Of a DNA stretch of 64,000 nucleotides, positions 24,839-63,812 are shown in pieces. Every line of letters begins with the position of its first letter. Position 1 is the first letter of the stretch. The stretch lies in contig CAXXVS010000002.1 in NCBI GenBank assembly GCA_963674755.2, forward strand, positions 1,504,001 through 1,568,000. Reading direction: 5' to 3'. Both the position numbers and the translations under genes were made by a program. The notes under the pieces are model-generated. The model was not told where the DNA came from. It searched no databases and worked only from the letters and a program-made list of their open reading frames with translations. The DNA is from Desulfobacterales bacterium. Its GTDB lineage: Bacteria; Desulfobacterota; Desulfobacteria; Desulfobacterales; UBA5852.

Positions 24839-24867
24839 ACGTCTTCCTTTTTTTGTTTTTATAAGTT

Positions 24868-24986
24868 GTGTCCATTCAGCGGTGGTCAATTCGGGTTCCG
24901 GCCAAGGCGGCGACGATTTGTCCGGCGTAGCCCTGCGAGGTAAGCGCTGCGTGGCCCGGCTGAAATGAGGATTTCCATAGACAGCA
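24868..24986 (+). mobile_element. MITE-like element, family 1, degenerate copy
   Basis: GTGTCCATTCAGCGGTGGTCAATTCGGGTTCCGGCCAAGG..GGCGTAGCC aligns with the start of copy 1; right end is eroded. Confidence 0.6.
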
Positions 24987-35426: not shown

Positions 35427-35662
35427 GTATCCATCCAGAGGTGACAACTTTTGGCCCCTGGCCCGCCGCCGGTGGACCAAATCCACCTTTAGCGGGCAAG
35501 CTGGCGTTCGCGCCTCCTGTCGGTCCTCGGCGTAGCCGGGCTGCGCCGGTGGACGCCCGTCGGCTGCGCTTTGTTGAACACCGATGTGTTACAGATCCGG
35601 CGTGAAATCCCGCGCTGTGCGGCGGGACCAGGAACCCAAATCTACCACCTCTGGATGGATAC
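35427..35662 (-). mobile_element. MITE-like element, family 1, inside the psp operon
   Basis: Perfect 17-bp TIRs GTATCCATCCAGAGGTG (35427-35443) / CACCTCTGGATGGATAC (35646-35662); interior matches the reverse complement of copy 1. Confidence 0.82.
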
Positions 35663-56487: not shown

Positions 56488-56727
56488 CCTTTATGAAGGA
56501 AGGTGACGCAAACCGCAAGGGGCGTGGAAGGGCGGCGTCACATCAAGACCCGCCGGATCGCGCTGCGGCGTCATTCCTCCACACGGTGAACAGGTTGCAT
56601 AGGCCTTAACGCTGTTTTATCTCCTGAACACAGGGGCGTGTTAGCCGGGCACGACCGCACCAACTTTCGGGCGGCACGCCGTTTCGATGAAAAGCACGGC
56701 TTCGCTAGGAAAGGCAATTTTATAAGT

Positions 56728-56897
56728 AGTGTCCGTCCAGAGATGGTAAATTTCGGTTCTGGCCAAAGCCGCAGCGATTTGAAAACCGACGGCGTAGCCG
56801 TATGAGCGATAGTGTTGCGTAGCTGGGCTACGGCGAGGATTTCCACAGCGCAAGAAAGCCGGCCGGGGCTGAAAGATGCCGTTTATGGATAGGCAGT
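56728..56897 (+). mobile_element. MITE-like element, family 1, copy with internal insertion
   Basis: AGTGTCCGTCCAGAGATGGTAAATTTCGGTTC...GGCGTAGCC...GGGCTACGGCGAGGA...AAAGATGCCGTTTATGGATAGGCAGT aligns end to end with copy 1. Confidence 0.75.
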
Positions 56898-56988
56898 GCG
56901 ACTCCTCCTGCCTAGCGGGAGATCTCGGGAAGCCCTTTCGAAGGGGGCTTGAAAAAGGTTTCTGAGGTTCGGCTTTTGAATTTCCCTT

Positions 56989-57167
56989 TGTCCCGCGCTG
57001 AGCATCGGCGCGGCGGACGGATTAAAGCGCGCGGACTGTTTGAGTCCGCCGTAGCCTTGGCGAAGGCGGGCGAGTTTCCGCGTGCTCCGGCCGCCGTGAC
57101 GACGCGCAGGGAGAAGCGGGACACGGGCGTTTTCTTTTGCTTCCGTTTTCTTTCACGTGAAAGAAAA
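56989..57167. repeat. Nested multi-hairpin intergenic element
   Basis: TGTCCCGC/GCGGGACA outer stem, CCGCC-GTAGCCTTGGCGAA-GGCGG inner hairpin, perfect 22-bp palindrome TTTTCTTTCACGTGAAAGAAAA (57146-57167). Confidence 0.6.
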
Positions 57168-57316
57168 TGAAGAAACCAATTGATGTAAAGGCACCCCGGA
57201 TCGGTCGAACCTCTTCGCGTACTCCATCAGAGGTGGAGGGTTTAGAATAAAGAACAAAAAATGTCTCTGCTGACAAGCGTACCGCAACCCCTTAAAAACA
57301 ACGGAGCGTATACCCG

Positions 57317-58147: not shown

Positions 58148-58655
58148 CCGCGCTAAGGTGAGCGGTGTGTCGTTTACGCGATGGTATACAACCACCCGTT
58201 ACCGCATTTGCATAACTGGGATCCTAAAGCCCTATCCCCCTCTCGATCCCGGATAAACCCTATCGCCTGTCTTTGCATTTCCCATGCGCATTTTTCCCGT
58301 AAAAATTGCTCTCAAGTGATTGTAGGTATTGCAAGAGACCGTCGTATACAGTATATGCGAAATAGTTCTTTCCTTTGCTTCAAAAAATAATTGGGAAGGG
58401 GTTCGGTTTTTACCTACCCACAAGGCACCCAGTTCACATTCTTAGCCAATAACCTGCCCCCTCCTTTATCAGTTGTTTTTATTCAACCTTTCCTGTTTTG
58501 CCAAAATCTTGAATTCTTAAGGCTACCCTATAGGTACGCCTTTTCGAAAATAGTAAGTGGGTTTTTAGATCTCTTCTGCGGAGGCGGCGGGCTTCTGTTG
58601 ATGATTCATGTTCGCTAATCGAGTGTGATGAAATCGGATATTTGAAAGGACATAA

Positions 58656-58728
58656 GGATCAGGTCTCAATATTTACCAAACCAAAAGTCTGGTTCCAACT
58701 AATTTGTCAGATGTTGAGACCCGACCCC
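58656..58728. repeat. Junction hairpin repeat, copy A
   Basis: GGATCAGGTCTCAATATTT...AGATGTTGAGACCCGACCCC with inner AACCA/TGGTT stem. Confidence 0.85.
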
Positions 58729-58770
58729 TGATCCTTTTTCTGGACTAGAAGTGTCTCAAAATAATTTTCC

Positions 58771-58801
58771 GCGTAACTATGTCGCTGCGACATAATTACG
58801 C
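58771..58801. repeat. 31-bp near-perfect palindrome
   Basis: GCGTAACTATGTCGC-T-GCGACATAATTACGC (arms match 14/15). Confidence 0.8.
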
Positions 58802-58855
58802 TAATAAGCGGTAAAAGACGCAAATTGAGGAAAAGGTTGTGATCTACATATTTTG

Positions 58856-58883
58856 TTTACTTTAGGTATCACACTGTTATGAT
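58856..58883 (+). promoter_or_regulatory. Candidate sigma70 promoter ahead of the first cassette
   Basis: TTTACT-N16-TATGAT with extended -10 TG; AT-rich context weakens significance. Confidence 0.4.
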
Positions 58884-58985
58884 GTAAAAATATCAATAAA
58901 CGCGAAGTCATGCATCGAGACCCGAAAAGTGTCTCATATTTCAGTTTCCGTCAAAAAGTTGAAAACTATTTAATATTATAGTTCG

Positions 58986-59372
58986 ATGACCAATATGACA
59001 TCTACAAACAACAATATTCTCATCAATGCTGATGACACCGTAAGAGATATAGTGGACCGGATAATGGCAATTTTATCTGAAAATAAAGCCAATTTATCCA
59101 AATTGAAAAATGAAATATGCCTTCTTTTGGAGCACTTGACAACGGAAGAAGGAAGAACCGATCTAAATTGTAAGGCTGTCGATTATTATTTTATGAATAA
59201 TGACCTGTGGGCTGAAAAAGATTTCCCAGATGAATTGCATGATATTTTTGCGGACATCTCTGGGGCTTTGCACGATACAATTTCATCGCCTGATGTGGCA
59301 AAAAATTTTGATTCAACTCCAGAGCAACTGCTGGAAAGACTAAGAAAGGTTCGCATCGAACCAGGGCATTAA
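58986..59372 (+). CDS. Hypothetical cassette protein
   Basis: 128-aa ORF bracketed by GTTCGAT (58981) and ATCGAAC (59355); its stop lies inside the attC. Confidence 0.8.
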   Translation: MTNMTSTNNNILINADDTVRDIVDRIMAILSENKANLSKLKNEICLLLEHLTTEEGRTDLNCKAVDYYFMNNDLWAEKDFPDELHDIFADISGALHDTISSPDVAKNFDSTPEQLLERLRKVRIEPGH

Positions 59373-59416
59373 GGGCGACGGCCAAAAGCCGCCGCGCCTT
59401 ATGCCCGCCGTTAAGC
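59355..59416 (+). other. Integron attC site
   Basis: R'' ATCGAAC, stem GGGCAT(T)AAGG.GCG..CGGC-CAAAA-GCCG..CGCGCCTTATGCCC with an extrahelical base, R' GTTAAGC; 62 bp. Confidence 0.85.
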
Positions 59417-59430
59417 GTAAATTAAAACTT

Positions 59431-59940
59431 ATGGATATCGAACCAGAAATCAAAGAGCTTTCTGAGTTTTTAGACGAATTCAACAAAGAAAGCGACAGGG
59501 GCGCTGTTCTTAATGCTGCAACAGTCCTTGATGAATGGCTGCTAAGCATAATTAAAGAGTTTTTAGTGGATAACCAATCTTCGAAAGAACTGTTAACTGG
59601 ATTCAATGCTCCACTTGGCACTTTTTCTTCAAGAGCAGCTGCAGCACATGCGCTAGGGTTAATCCAAGACAATGAATTTCAAGAAATCACAACAATTAGA
59701 AAAATCAGAAATGAATTTGGTCACAACTAGAGAGGTATTTCATTCAAAACACAAAAAATCTCAGACCTTGCAAACAATTTACCGTGGCTTGGACCTCCTG
59801 AAATAGAGAAGCAATCAAGCCTAAGAGTGCGTTTTGATTTTGTGGTTGCTGTTTTATTAACAGATCTATTGTGGCGTTCTCGAATGATAAAAAACGAAAA
59901 AAGAGAAATGAAGATTTGGCCAAACAGAGCCAGAAAATAG
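59431..59940 (+). pseudogene. MtlR-like / HEPN-fold cassette gene with in-frame TAG
   Basis: ESDRGAVL..LDEWL, APLGTFSSR, IRKIRNEFGH; TAG at 59728-59730, then the same frame stays open for 69 more codons. Confidence 0.8.
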
Positions 59941-59949
59941 CTATGGCTC

Positions 59950-59974
59950 GCTTAACAAAGCCATTAAGACGGAC
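59950..59974 (+). other. Left half of a truncated attC
   Basis: GCTTAAC-AAAGCCATTAAGACGGAC just after the stop; GCTTAAC is the reverse complement of the cassette-start GTTAAGC; no matching right arm seen. Confidence 0.7.
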
Positions 59975-60056
59975 CGCAATCGCGCTCGATGAACGCAAGA
60001 GCAGTAGTCGTGGTGAGAAAACCGTTAACCCAAATTTCAGTGTAGGGATAAGATTG

Positions 60057-60186
60057 GGGTCGCATCTTAATTGTTAACTATTGACATCTGCGTTATATCA
60101 GTTCTCTATACCCTATACCGACCGACGATTCCGAAATAGAATGTGGTAACTTAAACATCGTATAATTAATAATTAAGATGCGACCC
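60057..60186. repeat. Junction hairpin repeat, long variant E
   Basis: GGGTCGCATCTTAATTGTTAACTAT / ATAATTAATAATTAAGATGCGACCC, arms match 23/25, ~80-bp loop. Confidence 0.85.
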
Positions 60187-60217
60187 TCTTTCTCTTCCTT
60201 ATGTATCGAAAAAACAA

Positions 60218-60859
60218 ATGGGTTTATTAATGAATGACGAAATATCAAAAGCTATAGCAAAAGCCGGCGTTGAGGGAGGGATAGAGGCTGCTAAGGGTTT
60301 TCTTAGAAGATTAGCAGGCCCTGCTGTTGATGAATTAGGATTTCTATTGCAGGATCAAGTAAGGTTTTTTAGGCTTAAAAATCAGCTAAAAATATTATCA
60401 AAAGCCCAAAATATGATACTAAAGTCTGGCCTTTCTCCAGGGGCTATCCCACTTAGGACTTTGATCCCGTTACTGGAGGGGGCAGCTCTAGAGAATGATG
60501 AATATCTATCCAGCAAGTGGGCTGCTTTATTGGCCAATGCATCCATCGGTAAAAATGATATTGCAACGCACCCATCATTCCCACACATCCTTTCGCAACT
60601 CTCACCAGATGAGGCTTTGTTTTTGGATAAATTGGAAACATATGGTGGCGAGACTAATTGGAGTATATTCCGTAGAAATTTTGCTGCCGATTTTTCGAAG
60701 TCTATTGAAGAAGTAGATCAATATTTTGGAAACCTATTTCGCTTAGCACTGTGTCGAATATCTAACAAGGAAGCAGGAAAGCCATATAGCTCGTTATCAA
60801 TTGGGCCATTTGGCAAAAAATTCCTAAAAGCGTGCTCTTCTATCGACAATAATGCATAG
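60218..60859 (+). CDS. Abi-alpha / DUF4393-like protein
   Basis: PLLEGAALEND..L..KWAALLANAS, HPSF..ILSQLSPDEA.FL. Confidence 0.75.
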   Translation: MGLLMNDEISKAIAKAGVEGGIEAAKGFLRRLAGPAVDELGFLLQDQVRFFRLKNQLKILSKAQNMILKSGLSPGAIPLRTLIPLLEGAALENDEYLSSKWAALLANASIGKNDIATHPSFPHILSQLSPDEALFLDKLETYGGETNWSIFRRNFAADFSKSIEEVDQYFGNLFRLALCRISNKEAGKPYSSLSIGPFGKKFLKACSSIDNNA

Positions 60860-60942: not shown

Positions 60943-62094
60943 ATGAATAGGCCAATAACCCGCGAAAACCCTATGTTTCGGACAGGAAGCGATATCAATC
61001 TTAACGCTTGTGTAGGTTATAATGGATTTCCGAACATCCACACCTATCAGTTTGGGTACCATCAAGCTGTAGTCTCATTAATTGCGACCGCAAAAGAGAA
61101 GACCTACGATTCGGATTCATTGATTTACCCAATTTTATTTTGTGCAAGGCATGCGATAGAGCTTTTTCTCAAAAAACAAATTTATCTTTTATCAGATGTT
61201 AAGGCTATTACTTTGGATAGTGATTCTGAGAACCGCCTGCTAACTGCACACAGCTTGTATTCTTTATGGAATAATTTCAAAGACCTCTCAAAAATAGATA
61301 AGAGGTATGACTCCTTTATCGATAAATTGGAGCCTCATATTAAATGTTTTTGTGATGTGGATGATACGGGCCAAACTTTTCGATACCCCTTGGATGTAGA
61401 TGGCAAACGTCATCTAACAGAGTTCGGTTGCATCAATATCGGAATTTTCAGCAAAAAATATGAATCGATGTATAAAATCATCGAAGAAGTCGTTCTTCTG
61501 ACTGAGTATATTAAAGCCGAGTACAAACAGGGCACATTTATTAAAGAATTGTCTAGAGAACAAATTTCTGAAATTGCTCACATGCTTCCGATAAGAAGGA
61601 ATTGGGTTACAGATGACTTTTCAAAAGCGAAAAACGATATTTGTGCTGAATATGGCATAGGCTCAAGAACCTTTTCAAGGACTCTTAACCTGATTCAGAA
61701 GCACCGGGAGTTTGCATCATATATTGGGATGGAACTGCCCTTAAATGAGATTACTTCACACGAATTGAAAATATTTATCAATTTGTTTAATAAACACAGA
61801 AAAAGATTCAGAACTGATGATTATATCGCCATTATAAATGATTTCCCAAACGAGGTATGCGAAAACCTTTCGAACGATAATATTTATGCTATTTCGGCTA
61901 TTTTTGACATATCATTTTTTGATTTATTCAGTGAAGAGTATGATTCTGACATTGAAAGAAATAGAAAGCGTGATGATCCATTTGGTATTGTATTCAATAA
62001 TATATCTGTAAGGCGTGGCATTGTCTTAAAACATATAAAACGTGGGCTTGGTAGATTAGGCCAGATAACTTTACTCAAAGTTTTTGACGAATAA
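60943..62094 (+). CDS. Hypothetical protein, possible HEPN-like N-terminal domain
   Basis: 383-aa ORF; D.LIYPILF..RHAIELFLK, HSL..LW, D..GQTFRYP. Confidence 0.75.
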   Translation: MNRPITRENPMFRTGSDINLNACVGYNGFPNIHTYQFGYHQAVVSLIATAKEKTYDSDSLIYPILFCARHAIELFLKKQIYLLSDVKAITLDSDSENRLLTAHSLYSLWNNFKDLSKIDKRYDSFIDKLEPHIKCFCDVDDTGQTFRYPLDVDGKRHLTEFGCINIGIFSKKYESMYKIIEEVVLLTEYIKAEYKQGTFIKELSREQISEIAHMLPIRRNWVTDDFSKAKNDICAEYGIGSRTFSRTLNLIQKHREFASYIGMELPLNEITSHELKIFINLFNKHRKRFRTDDYIAIINDFPNEVCENLSNDNIYAISAIFDISFFDLFSEEYDSDIERNRKRDDPFGIVFNNISVRRGIVLKHIKRGLGRLGQITLLKVFDE

Positions 62095-62103
62095 GAAGGA
62101 TCA

Positions 62104-62185
62104 CTGGGTCAGATCTCAACATTTTACAGCCCAGTAATAACGGTTCCAGCAAAATAAAGTTGTCAAACGTTGAGATCAGACTCAG
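62104..62185. repeat. Junction hairpin repeat, copy B
   Basis: CTGGGTCAGATCTCAACATTT...TTGTCAAACGTTGAGATCAGACTCAG, starting 10 bp after the preceding stop. Confidence 0.88.
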
Positions 62186-62334
62186 CGGTTTTTTTAATTT
62201 CAGATATTCGGATGAAATTCCTGTCAATCACTAGTTAGAAATAAAATAATGAGCAGAAACCTTACCAGAATATTTAAAAAATTAAATTTTAAACATCGGA
62301 TTCTACTTTCAAAACACAACGATCGTAGACTCCA

Positions 62335-62919
62335 ATGGAAAGTTTTAGAAAAAAAGCTGAATCAATTTTCAATGAAATAATTCAGCAAGCAAAGGATTGT
62401 AGCTTTTGGGAAAATCTTTATATTCAAAAAAGTCCAGAAAAGTGTAAAACCATATTTGAAGGTGAGAAGTATTTAAATTTCAATATGATTGCACTTTCAT
62501 ATGGGAGTCATCCAACAGATATATCCGTCGAGATATACAAATCTGGAAAAAGAGTAAACGAACGTACAATTTCAGAAACCGGGGGTGCATTCTTAATTTC
62601 CCAGATTCCAAACGGTGGCGTCACTTTTTATCTATATTCTTCTAGTTCTGAATTGCATAAAGCAGATGAATATCCAAAACTGATAAGAGTATACAAAAAG
62701 CCATGTGATGTAAAAGAAAGGCAAATTTGGAGATGTGCAATTCGATTACTAAATTTTTCACATGACACCTCTTATGCTTCTTTCTATCCTTACCATAAAT
62801 ATTTGTATGAGCTTGCGAATAAACATAAAAGAGATTTTTTATTTTTATTGATCGGTGCTTTTATGTCTTATTTTATAGCATTTATTTTTGAAAACTTAAC
62901 AAATATTTTTTCTGGATGA
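62335..62919 (+). CDS. Hypothetical cassette protein with C-terminal TM helix (possibly frameshifted from a start at 62249)
   Basis: 194-aa ORF bracketed by GTTAGAA (62234) and TTCTAAC (62926). Confidence 0.75.
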   Translation: MESFRKKAESIFNEIIQQAKDCSFWENLYIQKSPEKCKTIFEGEKYLNFNMIALSYGSHPTDISVEIYKSGKRVNERTISETGGAFLISQIPNGGVTFYLYSSSSELHKADEYPKLIRVYKKPCDVKERQIWRCAIRLLNFSHDTSYASFYPYHKYLYELANKHKRDFLFLLIGAFMSYFIAFIFENLTNIFSG

Positions 62920-62969
62920 AATAATTTCTAACAAGTGCGAAATCGCAGTCTTTTATCGAAAGAGAATGA

Positions 62970-63042
62970 GGGTTGGCTTTTAACATTTTATAAACCAAAA
63001 CTTATGGTTTCAACTAATTTGCTAAATGTTGAAAACTGGCAC
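62970..63042. repeat. Junction hairpin repeat, copy C (degenerate)
   Basis: GGGTTGGCTTTTAACATTTTATAAACCAAAACTTATGGTTTCAACTAATTTGCTAAATGTTGAAAACTGGCAC aligns with copies A, B and D. Confidence 0.8.
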
Positions 63043-63080
63043 AAGATTATTTTCGTAACTTAGTTAGGCGAGAAGAAAAT

Positions 63081-63659
63081 ATGAAAGTAGAAATTATAAT
63101 ACCACTAATTGGTGTACTTCTTGGTTGGTTTCTAAATGAAATCAGTCAGGCAATTAGACAAAGCAGAGAAAATAAACCCTTTTTGGCACAAGCTATTGGT
63201 TCAATTTGTTGCATTTTATTCATACTTGAACGTAAAAGAAACTATTTAAACAGTGCTATCTACGCGGGAAAGCTCAGCGAGCACGGACACGAATTTTTAA
63301 ACTCTATCCTGCAAAACAAAGAAAATGAAATTAGAACCATAAGGGAAAAATCAGTATCAGCTGTTTCAAACCTAGACAAATTTGAACCTTTTATCTCACA
63401 TGAGTTAGACTTTTTCATGTTATATGCCTTAGATCTTGATGAAAAGATACAAAATAAATTACATAATATTGAAACGAACCTTGAAGAAATTCAGCGATTA
63501 GTAAGAGAGTTGAATATTGCTATTAAAAAATTTCATTTTATTATAAAGAAACTGACGTTAAAGCACAGCGTCTCAATGTATTTTAAGTATAGATGTGAAG
63601 CAAGAAAGAATAATAGTGACAAGATAGATTCTTTTGTTGAGGTATTCCAGCAAATTTAA
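63081..63659 (+). CDS. Hypothetical cassette protein, N-terminal TM helix plus helical domain
   Basis: IIPLIGVLLGWFLNE; preceded by the core-like GTTAGGC (63063-63069). Confidence 0.78.
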   Translation: MKVEIIIPLIGVLLGWFLNEISQAIRQSRENKPFLAQAIGSICCILFILERKRNYLNSAIYAGKLSEHGHEFLNSILQNKENEIRTIREKSVSAVSNLDKFEPFISHELDFFMLYALDLDEKIQNKLHNIETNLEEIQRLVRELNIAIKKFHFIIKKLTLKHSVSMYFKYRCEARKNNSDKIDSFVEVFQQI

Positions 63660-63674
63660 AGAATAAGAGCCATT

Positions 63675-63747
63675 GGGTCAGATATCAACATTTTACGAAC
63701 CAGAAATTATGGCTCGAACTAAATTGTCAAATTATTTGATCTAACAC
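63675..63747. repeat. Junction hairpin repeat, copy D
   Basis: GGGTCAGATATCAACATTTTACGAACCAGAAATTATGGCTCGAACTAAATTGTCAAATTATTTGATCTAACAC. Confidence 0.82.
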
Positions 63748-63812
63748 GGATTCTTTTTTGAGATACGAAGCGCATTTCTTTTCTATTTTCCGAACTCGAT
63801 ATGGAGTAACAA

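Follow-up and report, generated by a model that had tools for sequence, protein, structure and literature searches.

In this study, a hairpin repeat (hairpin C) was found to interrupt what is most likely a single attC site (62926-63069) in a low-GC island near the end of the window, the 64,000-nt stretch of the Desulfobacterales bacterium genome analysed here (G000:C2:1504001-1568000). Established are the boundaries of the cassettes, the attI platform, the family to which the hairpins belong and the link of this family to TIRYT genes, and we consider it probable that a decaying, integrase-less integron was opportunistically colonised and broken by non-autonomous TIRYT TIR dimers (TnpA-Y1 subclass 2.1). 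On this reading, which we hold with reasonable though not high confidence, the hairpin would be an opportunistic disruptor of attC and not a specific targeter of it. Dimers would have been copied into dispensable DNA by a transposase that works in trans on hairpins in single-stranded form; insertions within genes would mostly have been purged, leaving survivors at gene ends, which in cassette arrays are often attC. One dimer would have entered the cassette 3 attC about 33 nt in (62959), pushing out the inner stem, after which both decayed. Cleavage and rejoining at the TIRs, or recombination between TIRs, may have produced some of the island breakpoints, including the loss of intI.

The GC content changes from about 0.60 to 0.32-0.44 past 58 kb of the window, and in the low-GC island the genes all point the same way as far as about 65.7 kb (Table 1). 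Its attC inventory comprises one intact, one chimeric and one interrupted site, and decay is marked by a frameshift in the cassette 3 gene and a nonsense codon in the cassette 2 gene. G000 has about 60 attC sites in 14 clusters and 13 Y1_Tnp matches; the only intact integron integrase gene lies 770 kb from the island, accompanied in the genome by several integrase fragments. The island is a decaying integron, an attI platform with cassettes that has lost its integrase.

Table 1. Features of the low-GC island, in window coordinates unless a genome position is given.
Feature	Position	Strand	Basis or remark
TIR dimer, family B, first copy	58645..58739	+	nhmmer E 2e-21; profile seed
Last codons of the lost intI (Leu-Asp-stop)	58740..58748	+	aligns with SPLD* intI ends in relatives
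intI-attI spacer and attI, crossover core GTTCGAT at 58981	58749..58987	+	79-90% identity to platforms of relatives
Cassette 1, complete attC at 59355-59416	58982..59416	+	R'' ATCGAAC exact complement of GTTCGAT
Cassette 2: MltR-like gene 59431-59940, internal TAG	59411..59956	+	7/7 core complement; translation
Chimeric attC, two half-types joined	59950..60030	+	scores 16.0 and 8.9; ends unpaired
TIR dimer, family E (hairpin E)	60045..60197	+	family in 16/321 genomes of the order
Abi_alpha-domain gene	60218..60859	+	Pfam PF14337 E 3e-22; PADLOC PDC-S47; without clear attC
TIR dimer, family B (hairpin B)	62095..62194	+	directly 3' of the stop of gene 60943-62094
attI-like site, core GTTAGAA (62234), 5' boundary of cassette 3	62220..62240	+	kept in L145
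Cassette 3 gene, frameshifted near 62345	62249..62919	+	homologue P0002
Left stub of the interrupted attC (R'' TTCTAAC, spacer, decayed L box)	62926..62958	+	12-nt identity with intact attC of L145
Hairpin C, decayed TIR dimer, family B	62959..63053	+	nhmmer E 2e-17, copy C being one of the four seeds of the family-B profile
Right stub of attC (probable), core GTTAGGC at 63063	63054..63069	+	pairs with left stub, null 0.4-1.5%
Gene, function unassigned	63081..63659	+	cassette-like start, no R'' at end; homologues P0004 and P0005 equal in length
TIR dimer, family B	63664..63758	+	nhmmer profile search
Fifth family-B copy, just outside the window	G000:C2:1568559		

The intI-attI spacer and attI aligned with locus L150 at a local score of 67, against a shuffle maximum of 33, and the T tail of the hairpin at 58645 adjoins the surviving intI codons. 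A contig of a related strain tracks the window from 57267 until its match ends at 58983, the attI crossover, where further records likewise stop or join; because the contigs diverge at this position, different first cassettes at the island attI are suggested among related strains. Cassettes 1, 2 and 3 all have cores that are complementary at 7/7 positions. The cassette 2 gene gave a weak Pfam MtlR match and has plasmid homologues named MltR family, and no close homologue of it was found among 301 genomes. Integrase-less attI platforms are common in the genus.

The hairpins can be assigned to a known family, TIRtrons/TIRYT, as transposase-free TIR dimers, since their end motif and their flanking of Y1 transposase genes match that family. 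The family-B consensus (GGGGTCAG), whose start is GGGGTCAGGTCTCAACA, fits the GGGGWSAS end motif and occurs at no fewer than 131 loci across many phyla, with copy C itself decayed. B-type repeats directly flank MARPLR-type genes (recognised by their N-terminus, without a domain scan) as inverted ends in L245, L248, L250, L252 and L254, and a pair of A-type repeats flanks a gene with Y1_Tnp and Bac_DnaA_C domains in G000; elsewhere the TIR repeats are scattered, in dimers or in clusters. No cognate B-type transposase turned up in G000, where the Y1 genes carry other TIR types and no B-flanked gene was seen. The five B copies of the island have the same flanks, point the same way and stand between consecutive genes, and this order looks greater than random colonisation would give, which counts against opportunistic colonisation. 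Among the B copies, a terminator-like score was given by the one at 62095 alone; a promoter scan stayed at chance level, and Rfam returned sub-threshold matches only.

At the outer ends of the TIRs, short tandem copies of the flank plus GGGTC were present at 35 of 179 B ends, against 9.4 expected. These copies possibly represent a footprint of the TIRYT reaction and are consistent with an end that is cut and rejoined several times. Related TnpA-REP enzymes cut and rejoin single strands near their own hairpins, according to the portion of the source available (PMC8266576), and TIRYT activity may be similar by analogy with these other TnpA-REP groups. The tandem copies were seen in L014-L144 and at G000:C1:917376-917430. 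Two candidate attC resemblances were dropped. The B dimers, whose arms carry AAC and GTT, gave no consistent signal as pseudo-attC when neighbouring arms were compared by eye, and the CTAAC that follows half-E elements appeared, also by eye, to be the remnant of a gene end.

The preliminary description of this DNA had reported an attC-like left end at 62926, followed by hairpin C and an attC-like right core, with no stem joining the two halves. The left end (TTCTAACAAGT; TTCTAAC-AAGTG) is a genuine attC end, because the homologous locus L145 is an intact cassette that has the identical 12 bases followed by a full attC. The cassette 3 gene has a single homologue, P0002 (55% amino acid identity), at this locus, where GTTAGAA stands before the start and the stop is followed on its 3' side by TTCTAACAAGTA and then by a complete 79-nt attC. 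The 12 nt in common (TTTCTAACAAGT in L145) correspond to 62925-62936 of the window, which diverges beyond them, and in low-GC DNA a match of this length was obtained in 2 of 20000 trials. Moreover, the R'' TTCTAAC (62926) is a 7/7 complement of the 5' core of its own cassette, GTTAGAA (62234), and the same pairing exists in L145. The left end of the preliminary description is thereby confirmed.

Hairpin C was likewise borne out, as a decayed member of family B, and the right stub is probable. Its core GTTAGGC (63063) has an ATG 11 nt downstream, as in a cassette start; no homologous locus was obtained for the gene at 63081, and hence no intact allele for the right stub. The supposed lack of a stem proved incorrect: on the bottom strand of 62926-63069, an outer stem of 5+4+5 pairs (14) surrounds hairpin C, with the R''/R' cores (AAC ... 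GTT) paired. Nine pairs beyond the R box arose by chance in 40 of 10000 cases, or in 148 of 10000 with the T tail of the element kept, so both stubs probably belong to one attC. When hairpin C was removed in silico at three choices of boundary, sites of 49-68 nt were obtained with an identical outer stem and no canonical L box; as the results are similar at the three boundaries, they do not fix the exact breakpoint. Alignment with the intact homologous cassette, which had been proposed for mapping the breakpoints, established the left stub; no empty-site allele of the 62959 junction was found.

The preliminary description had extended the same picture to two other places, and in each it holds in part. 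At 59950 the left half-attC is real (profile score 16.0), but hairpin E is not at the break: the right half of another attC type (GGTGAGA-AAAACC-GTTAACC, GTT at 60024, score 8.9) is joined there, the ends of the chimera (59950..60030) do not pair, and hairpin E begins 15 nt further on. Hairpin B does precede GTTAGAA (62234), by about 40 nt, but the context is not that of a broken attC. The right-half attC score at this core is -6.4. GTTAGAA is a genuine start of a cassette, and its surroundings are attI-like, with 10 of the 14 bases upstream of its GTT identical to L145.

With these data, it is very improbable that 62926-63069 remains functional as a single long attC whose variable terminal stem is the hairpin. 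The 144 nt of the bottom strand are predicted to form one structure with a paired R box (z -1.9), as such a site might, but the L box is 4/7 paired at a 7-nt spacer and 0-1/7 paired at spacers of 5-6 nt, below all 40 reference attC of G000 (5-7/7). Pairing around one extrahelical base with a 5-6-nt spacer, the usual mark of an attC L box, is missing. The half-site profile scores are -1.6 and -11.7, where leave-one-out scoring gave 3.6 to 26.5 and -5.6 to 25.9, the spacer is paired here and unpaired in real sites, and the upstream gene is frameshifted; the region is not an ordinary long attC with proper L boxes, in agreement with the preliminary description. That description had further proposed that the hairpin element targets attC structures, in the manner of IS1111-attC elements and group IIC-attC introns, which we regard as unlikely. 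Hairpins do lie inside broken attC: beside the present site, three interrupted or truncated attC were found (G000:C1:726455, L289 and L306), making four across three genomes, and, as an analogy, HUH transposases and IntI both act on folded single strands, according to the available text of PMC8266576. The four breakpoints, however, lie about 20, 33, 48-56 and 50-60 nt from R'', at no fixed position, and the counts agree with the intergenic expectation. Two of the 37 A, B and E elements of G000 are flanked by attC halves on both sides. In the five G000 arrays that hold elements, with both interrupted sites added by hand, 2 of 17 elements are inside attC, against 0.7 expected if any position is allowed (P=0.16) and 3.1 if only intergenic ones are (P=0.85), and 5 of 17 lie within 60 nt of attC against 5.1 expected. 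Pooling of the array-associated elements gave 4 of 20 inside attC (any-position P=0.009, intergenic P=0.52); as this exceeds the any-position expectation, a weak preference for attC may exist. The enrichment of half-attC beside hairpins that had been anticipated across genomes did not appear: adjacent half-attC were found at 0 of 178 B ends (control 8/283), 0 of 39 A ends (control 0/148; 30 loci of 196 matches) and 1 of 25 E ends (control 2/95), in a count that leaves out five E loci of G000, five duplicates and ends less than 70 nt from a locus edge, that relies on a half-site profile trained on one genome, which may miss attC of other phyla, and that includes many genomes which may be without arrays. 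YTAAC stands beside 7 of 179 B ends, against 13.1 expected, and the 17-site intact integron of G000 holds no A, B or E element. Neither a fixed attC position nor a majority of copies within attC, as in IS1111-attC-type elements, was found. The hairpins are enriched in cassette islands and not at attC: TIR elements are present in 6 of 16 attC-bearing low-GC blocks and in 8 of 72 other low-GC blocks (P=0.018).

This enrichment also bears on the other proposal of the preliminary description, a second system that excises genes with attC stubs attached and re-arrays them. In its fuller form, TIRYT and its repeats would be an integrase-independent system that excises integron pieces (attI, cassettes and attC stubs), reassembles them elsewhere and seeds integrase-less arrays, which we judge doubtful, though less so than attC targeting. 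Its support is circumstantial, namely co-location with arrays, hairpins at some integrase-loss breakpoints and one array between transposase remnants. In L145, one side of the array carries an A-type TIRYT pseudogene reduced to its 3' part, together with its TIR, and the other side carries a further TIR and the beginning of another copy, the two being in direct orientation; both attI-type sites of the island lie after a B dimer; E-type ends mark edges of islands in L289 and L306; and of 32 integrase-less attI platforms, 4 have a TIR arm no more than 300 nt upstream (backgrounds 60/1500 and 5/577), with motifs chosen post hoc. On the other hand, 28 of the 32 platforms are without an upstream TIR arm, one B dimer was found in 20 array regions of relatives, and in no case did one gene appear at two separate positions bounded by TIRs. 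Among the joints listed from four runs, from contigs that drop rare variants, none skips a segment between two dimers. Most dimers of these families adjoin ordinary genes, and dimers sit between ordinary genes in genomes without a detected integron integrase. Mobilisation of integron fragments by TIRs is possible; if it occurred, which we think rather unlikely, TIRYT would move attI and cassettes without the integrase and seed the platforms of the genus, IntI in trans would load cassettes, and repeat-punctuated arrays would result.

Opportunistic colonisation, the explanation we prefer, brings together two components that are each known, and the interplay of TIRYT repeats with integrons appears to be undescribed. 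TIRtrons/TIRYT and TIR repeat families were described by Di Nocera et al. (2013; PMC3733652), and the same group corresponds to TnpA-Y1 subclass 2.1 (Quentin et al., 2018; PMC6006769) and RAYT group 1 (Bertels et al., 2017; PMC5581495), as given in the available text of these papers. The present elements resemble that description in their GGGGWSAS-type ends, their dimers and clusters, and their flanking Y1 transposase genes with a DnaA-type HTH; they differ in that the dimers here are decayed, are interspersed through an island of integron origin and break up an attC. The main texts of PMC3733652 and PMC6006769 do not use the term 'integron', and full-text literature searches, with subscription papers and bioRxiv supplements outside their reach, returned no paper linking RAYT/TIRYT repeats to integrons.

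Group IIC-attC introns are mobile elements inside attC. IS1111-attC elements insert at a specific attC location, according to a citing paper seen in part (cited in PMC11187229). The present hairpins resemble both in being mobile elements within an attC, but their points of entry vary, they show no enrichment at attC and they have no coding capacity. The island also resembles CALINs, clusters of attC without an integrase that arise by integrase loss or by mobile-element rearrangement and are recognised, in the text available, by at least two attC within 4 kb with no intI nearby (Cury et al., 2016; PMC4889954). It has cassettes and attC without a neighbouring intI and, as in IS-linked CALINs, a mobile element marks the breaks; in contrast to them, it keeps attI and the last intI codons, its breakpoint is a TIR dimer instead of an IS, and only one attC is intact. 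MITE- or IMU-flanked class 1 integrons, as far as the source text describes them, have units of 288-439 bp with target duplications, moved by a transposase in trans (PMC3575428). Here too non-autonomous repeats bound integron DNA, and L145 is comparable, but the repeats are about 25-150 nt, belong to a HUH transposase and are putatively mobile.

The origin of integrase-less cassette arrays has so far been explained only in part, and the literature consulted on TIRYT transposases, in the text available, gives no biological role for them. The locus provides base-level examples of TIRYT repeats at an integrase-loss breakpoint and inside an attC, together with an array between two transposase remnants, by which a link between TIRYT and integrons becomes testable. 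As it stands, the locus chiefly documents an integron in decay through the action of a repeat family already known.

Several further observations were made. Within the island, the Abi_alpha gene (PDC-S47, 60218-60859) is a candidate anti-phage cargo, and the gene for a nucleoside deoxyribosyltransferase-like protein (G000:C2:1567813-1568583) is a second. A second island (G000:C1:726420-730700) has E and A dimers separating successive low-GC genes among attC sites and includes the attC interrupted about 20 nt past its start. At L145:3582-8237, a cassette array with methylase-like and restriction-like genes lies between the two direct-orientation A-type TIRtron remnants in a composite-like arrangement, and a 12-nt unit is repeated about 8 times in tandem (L145:3745-3840) just 5' of the attI-like site. 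Elsewhere in the window, a non-coding repeat of about 350 bp (56900-57250) has dozens of copies in 13 of 13 genus genomes searched, and a separate dispersed inverted-repeat family (CCATCCAGAGGTGG...) is present in the high-GC part at 1277-1426, 24862-24939, 35427-35662 and 56723-56895.

Genomes of the genus have many integrase-less attI platforms each, which start at the intI stop codon or slightly ahead of it (for example G000 C1:481594, C1:722106, C3:616923, C3:693107 and C3:2579857, and L179-L208). The platform spacer contains two copies of a motif with an ATTATC..GATAAT-type palindrome, and one copy in short versions. A GC-rich motif with a small palindrome lies about 40-60 nt 5' of many of these platforms (L180, L184, L190-L192, L199, L200 and L206, and G000:C3:2579900). 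At L204:2018-4916, a gene of 403 aa is tandemly duplicated right after attI, and each copy starts at a GTT core.
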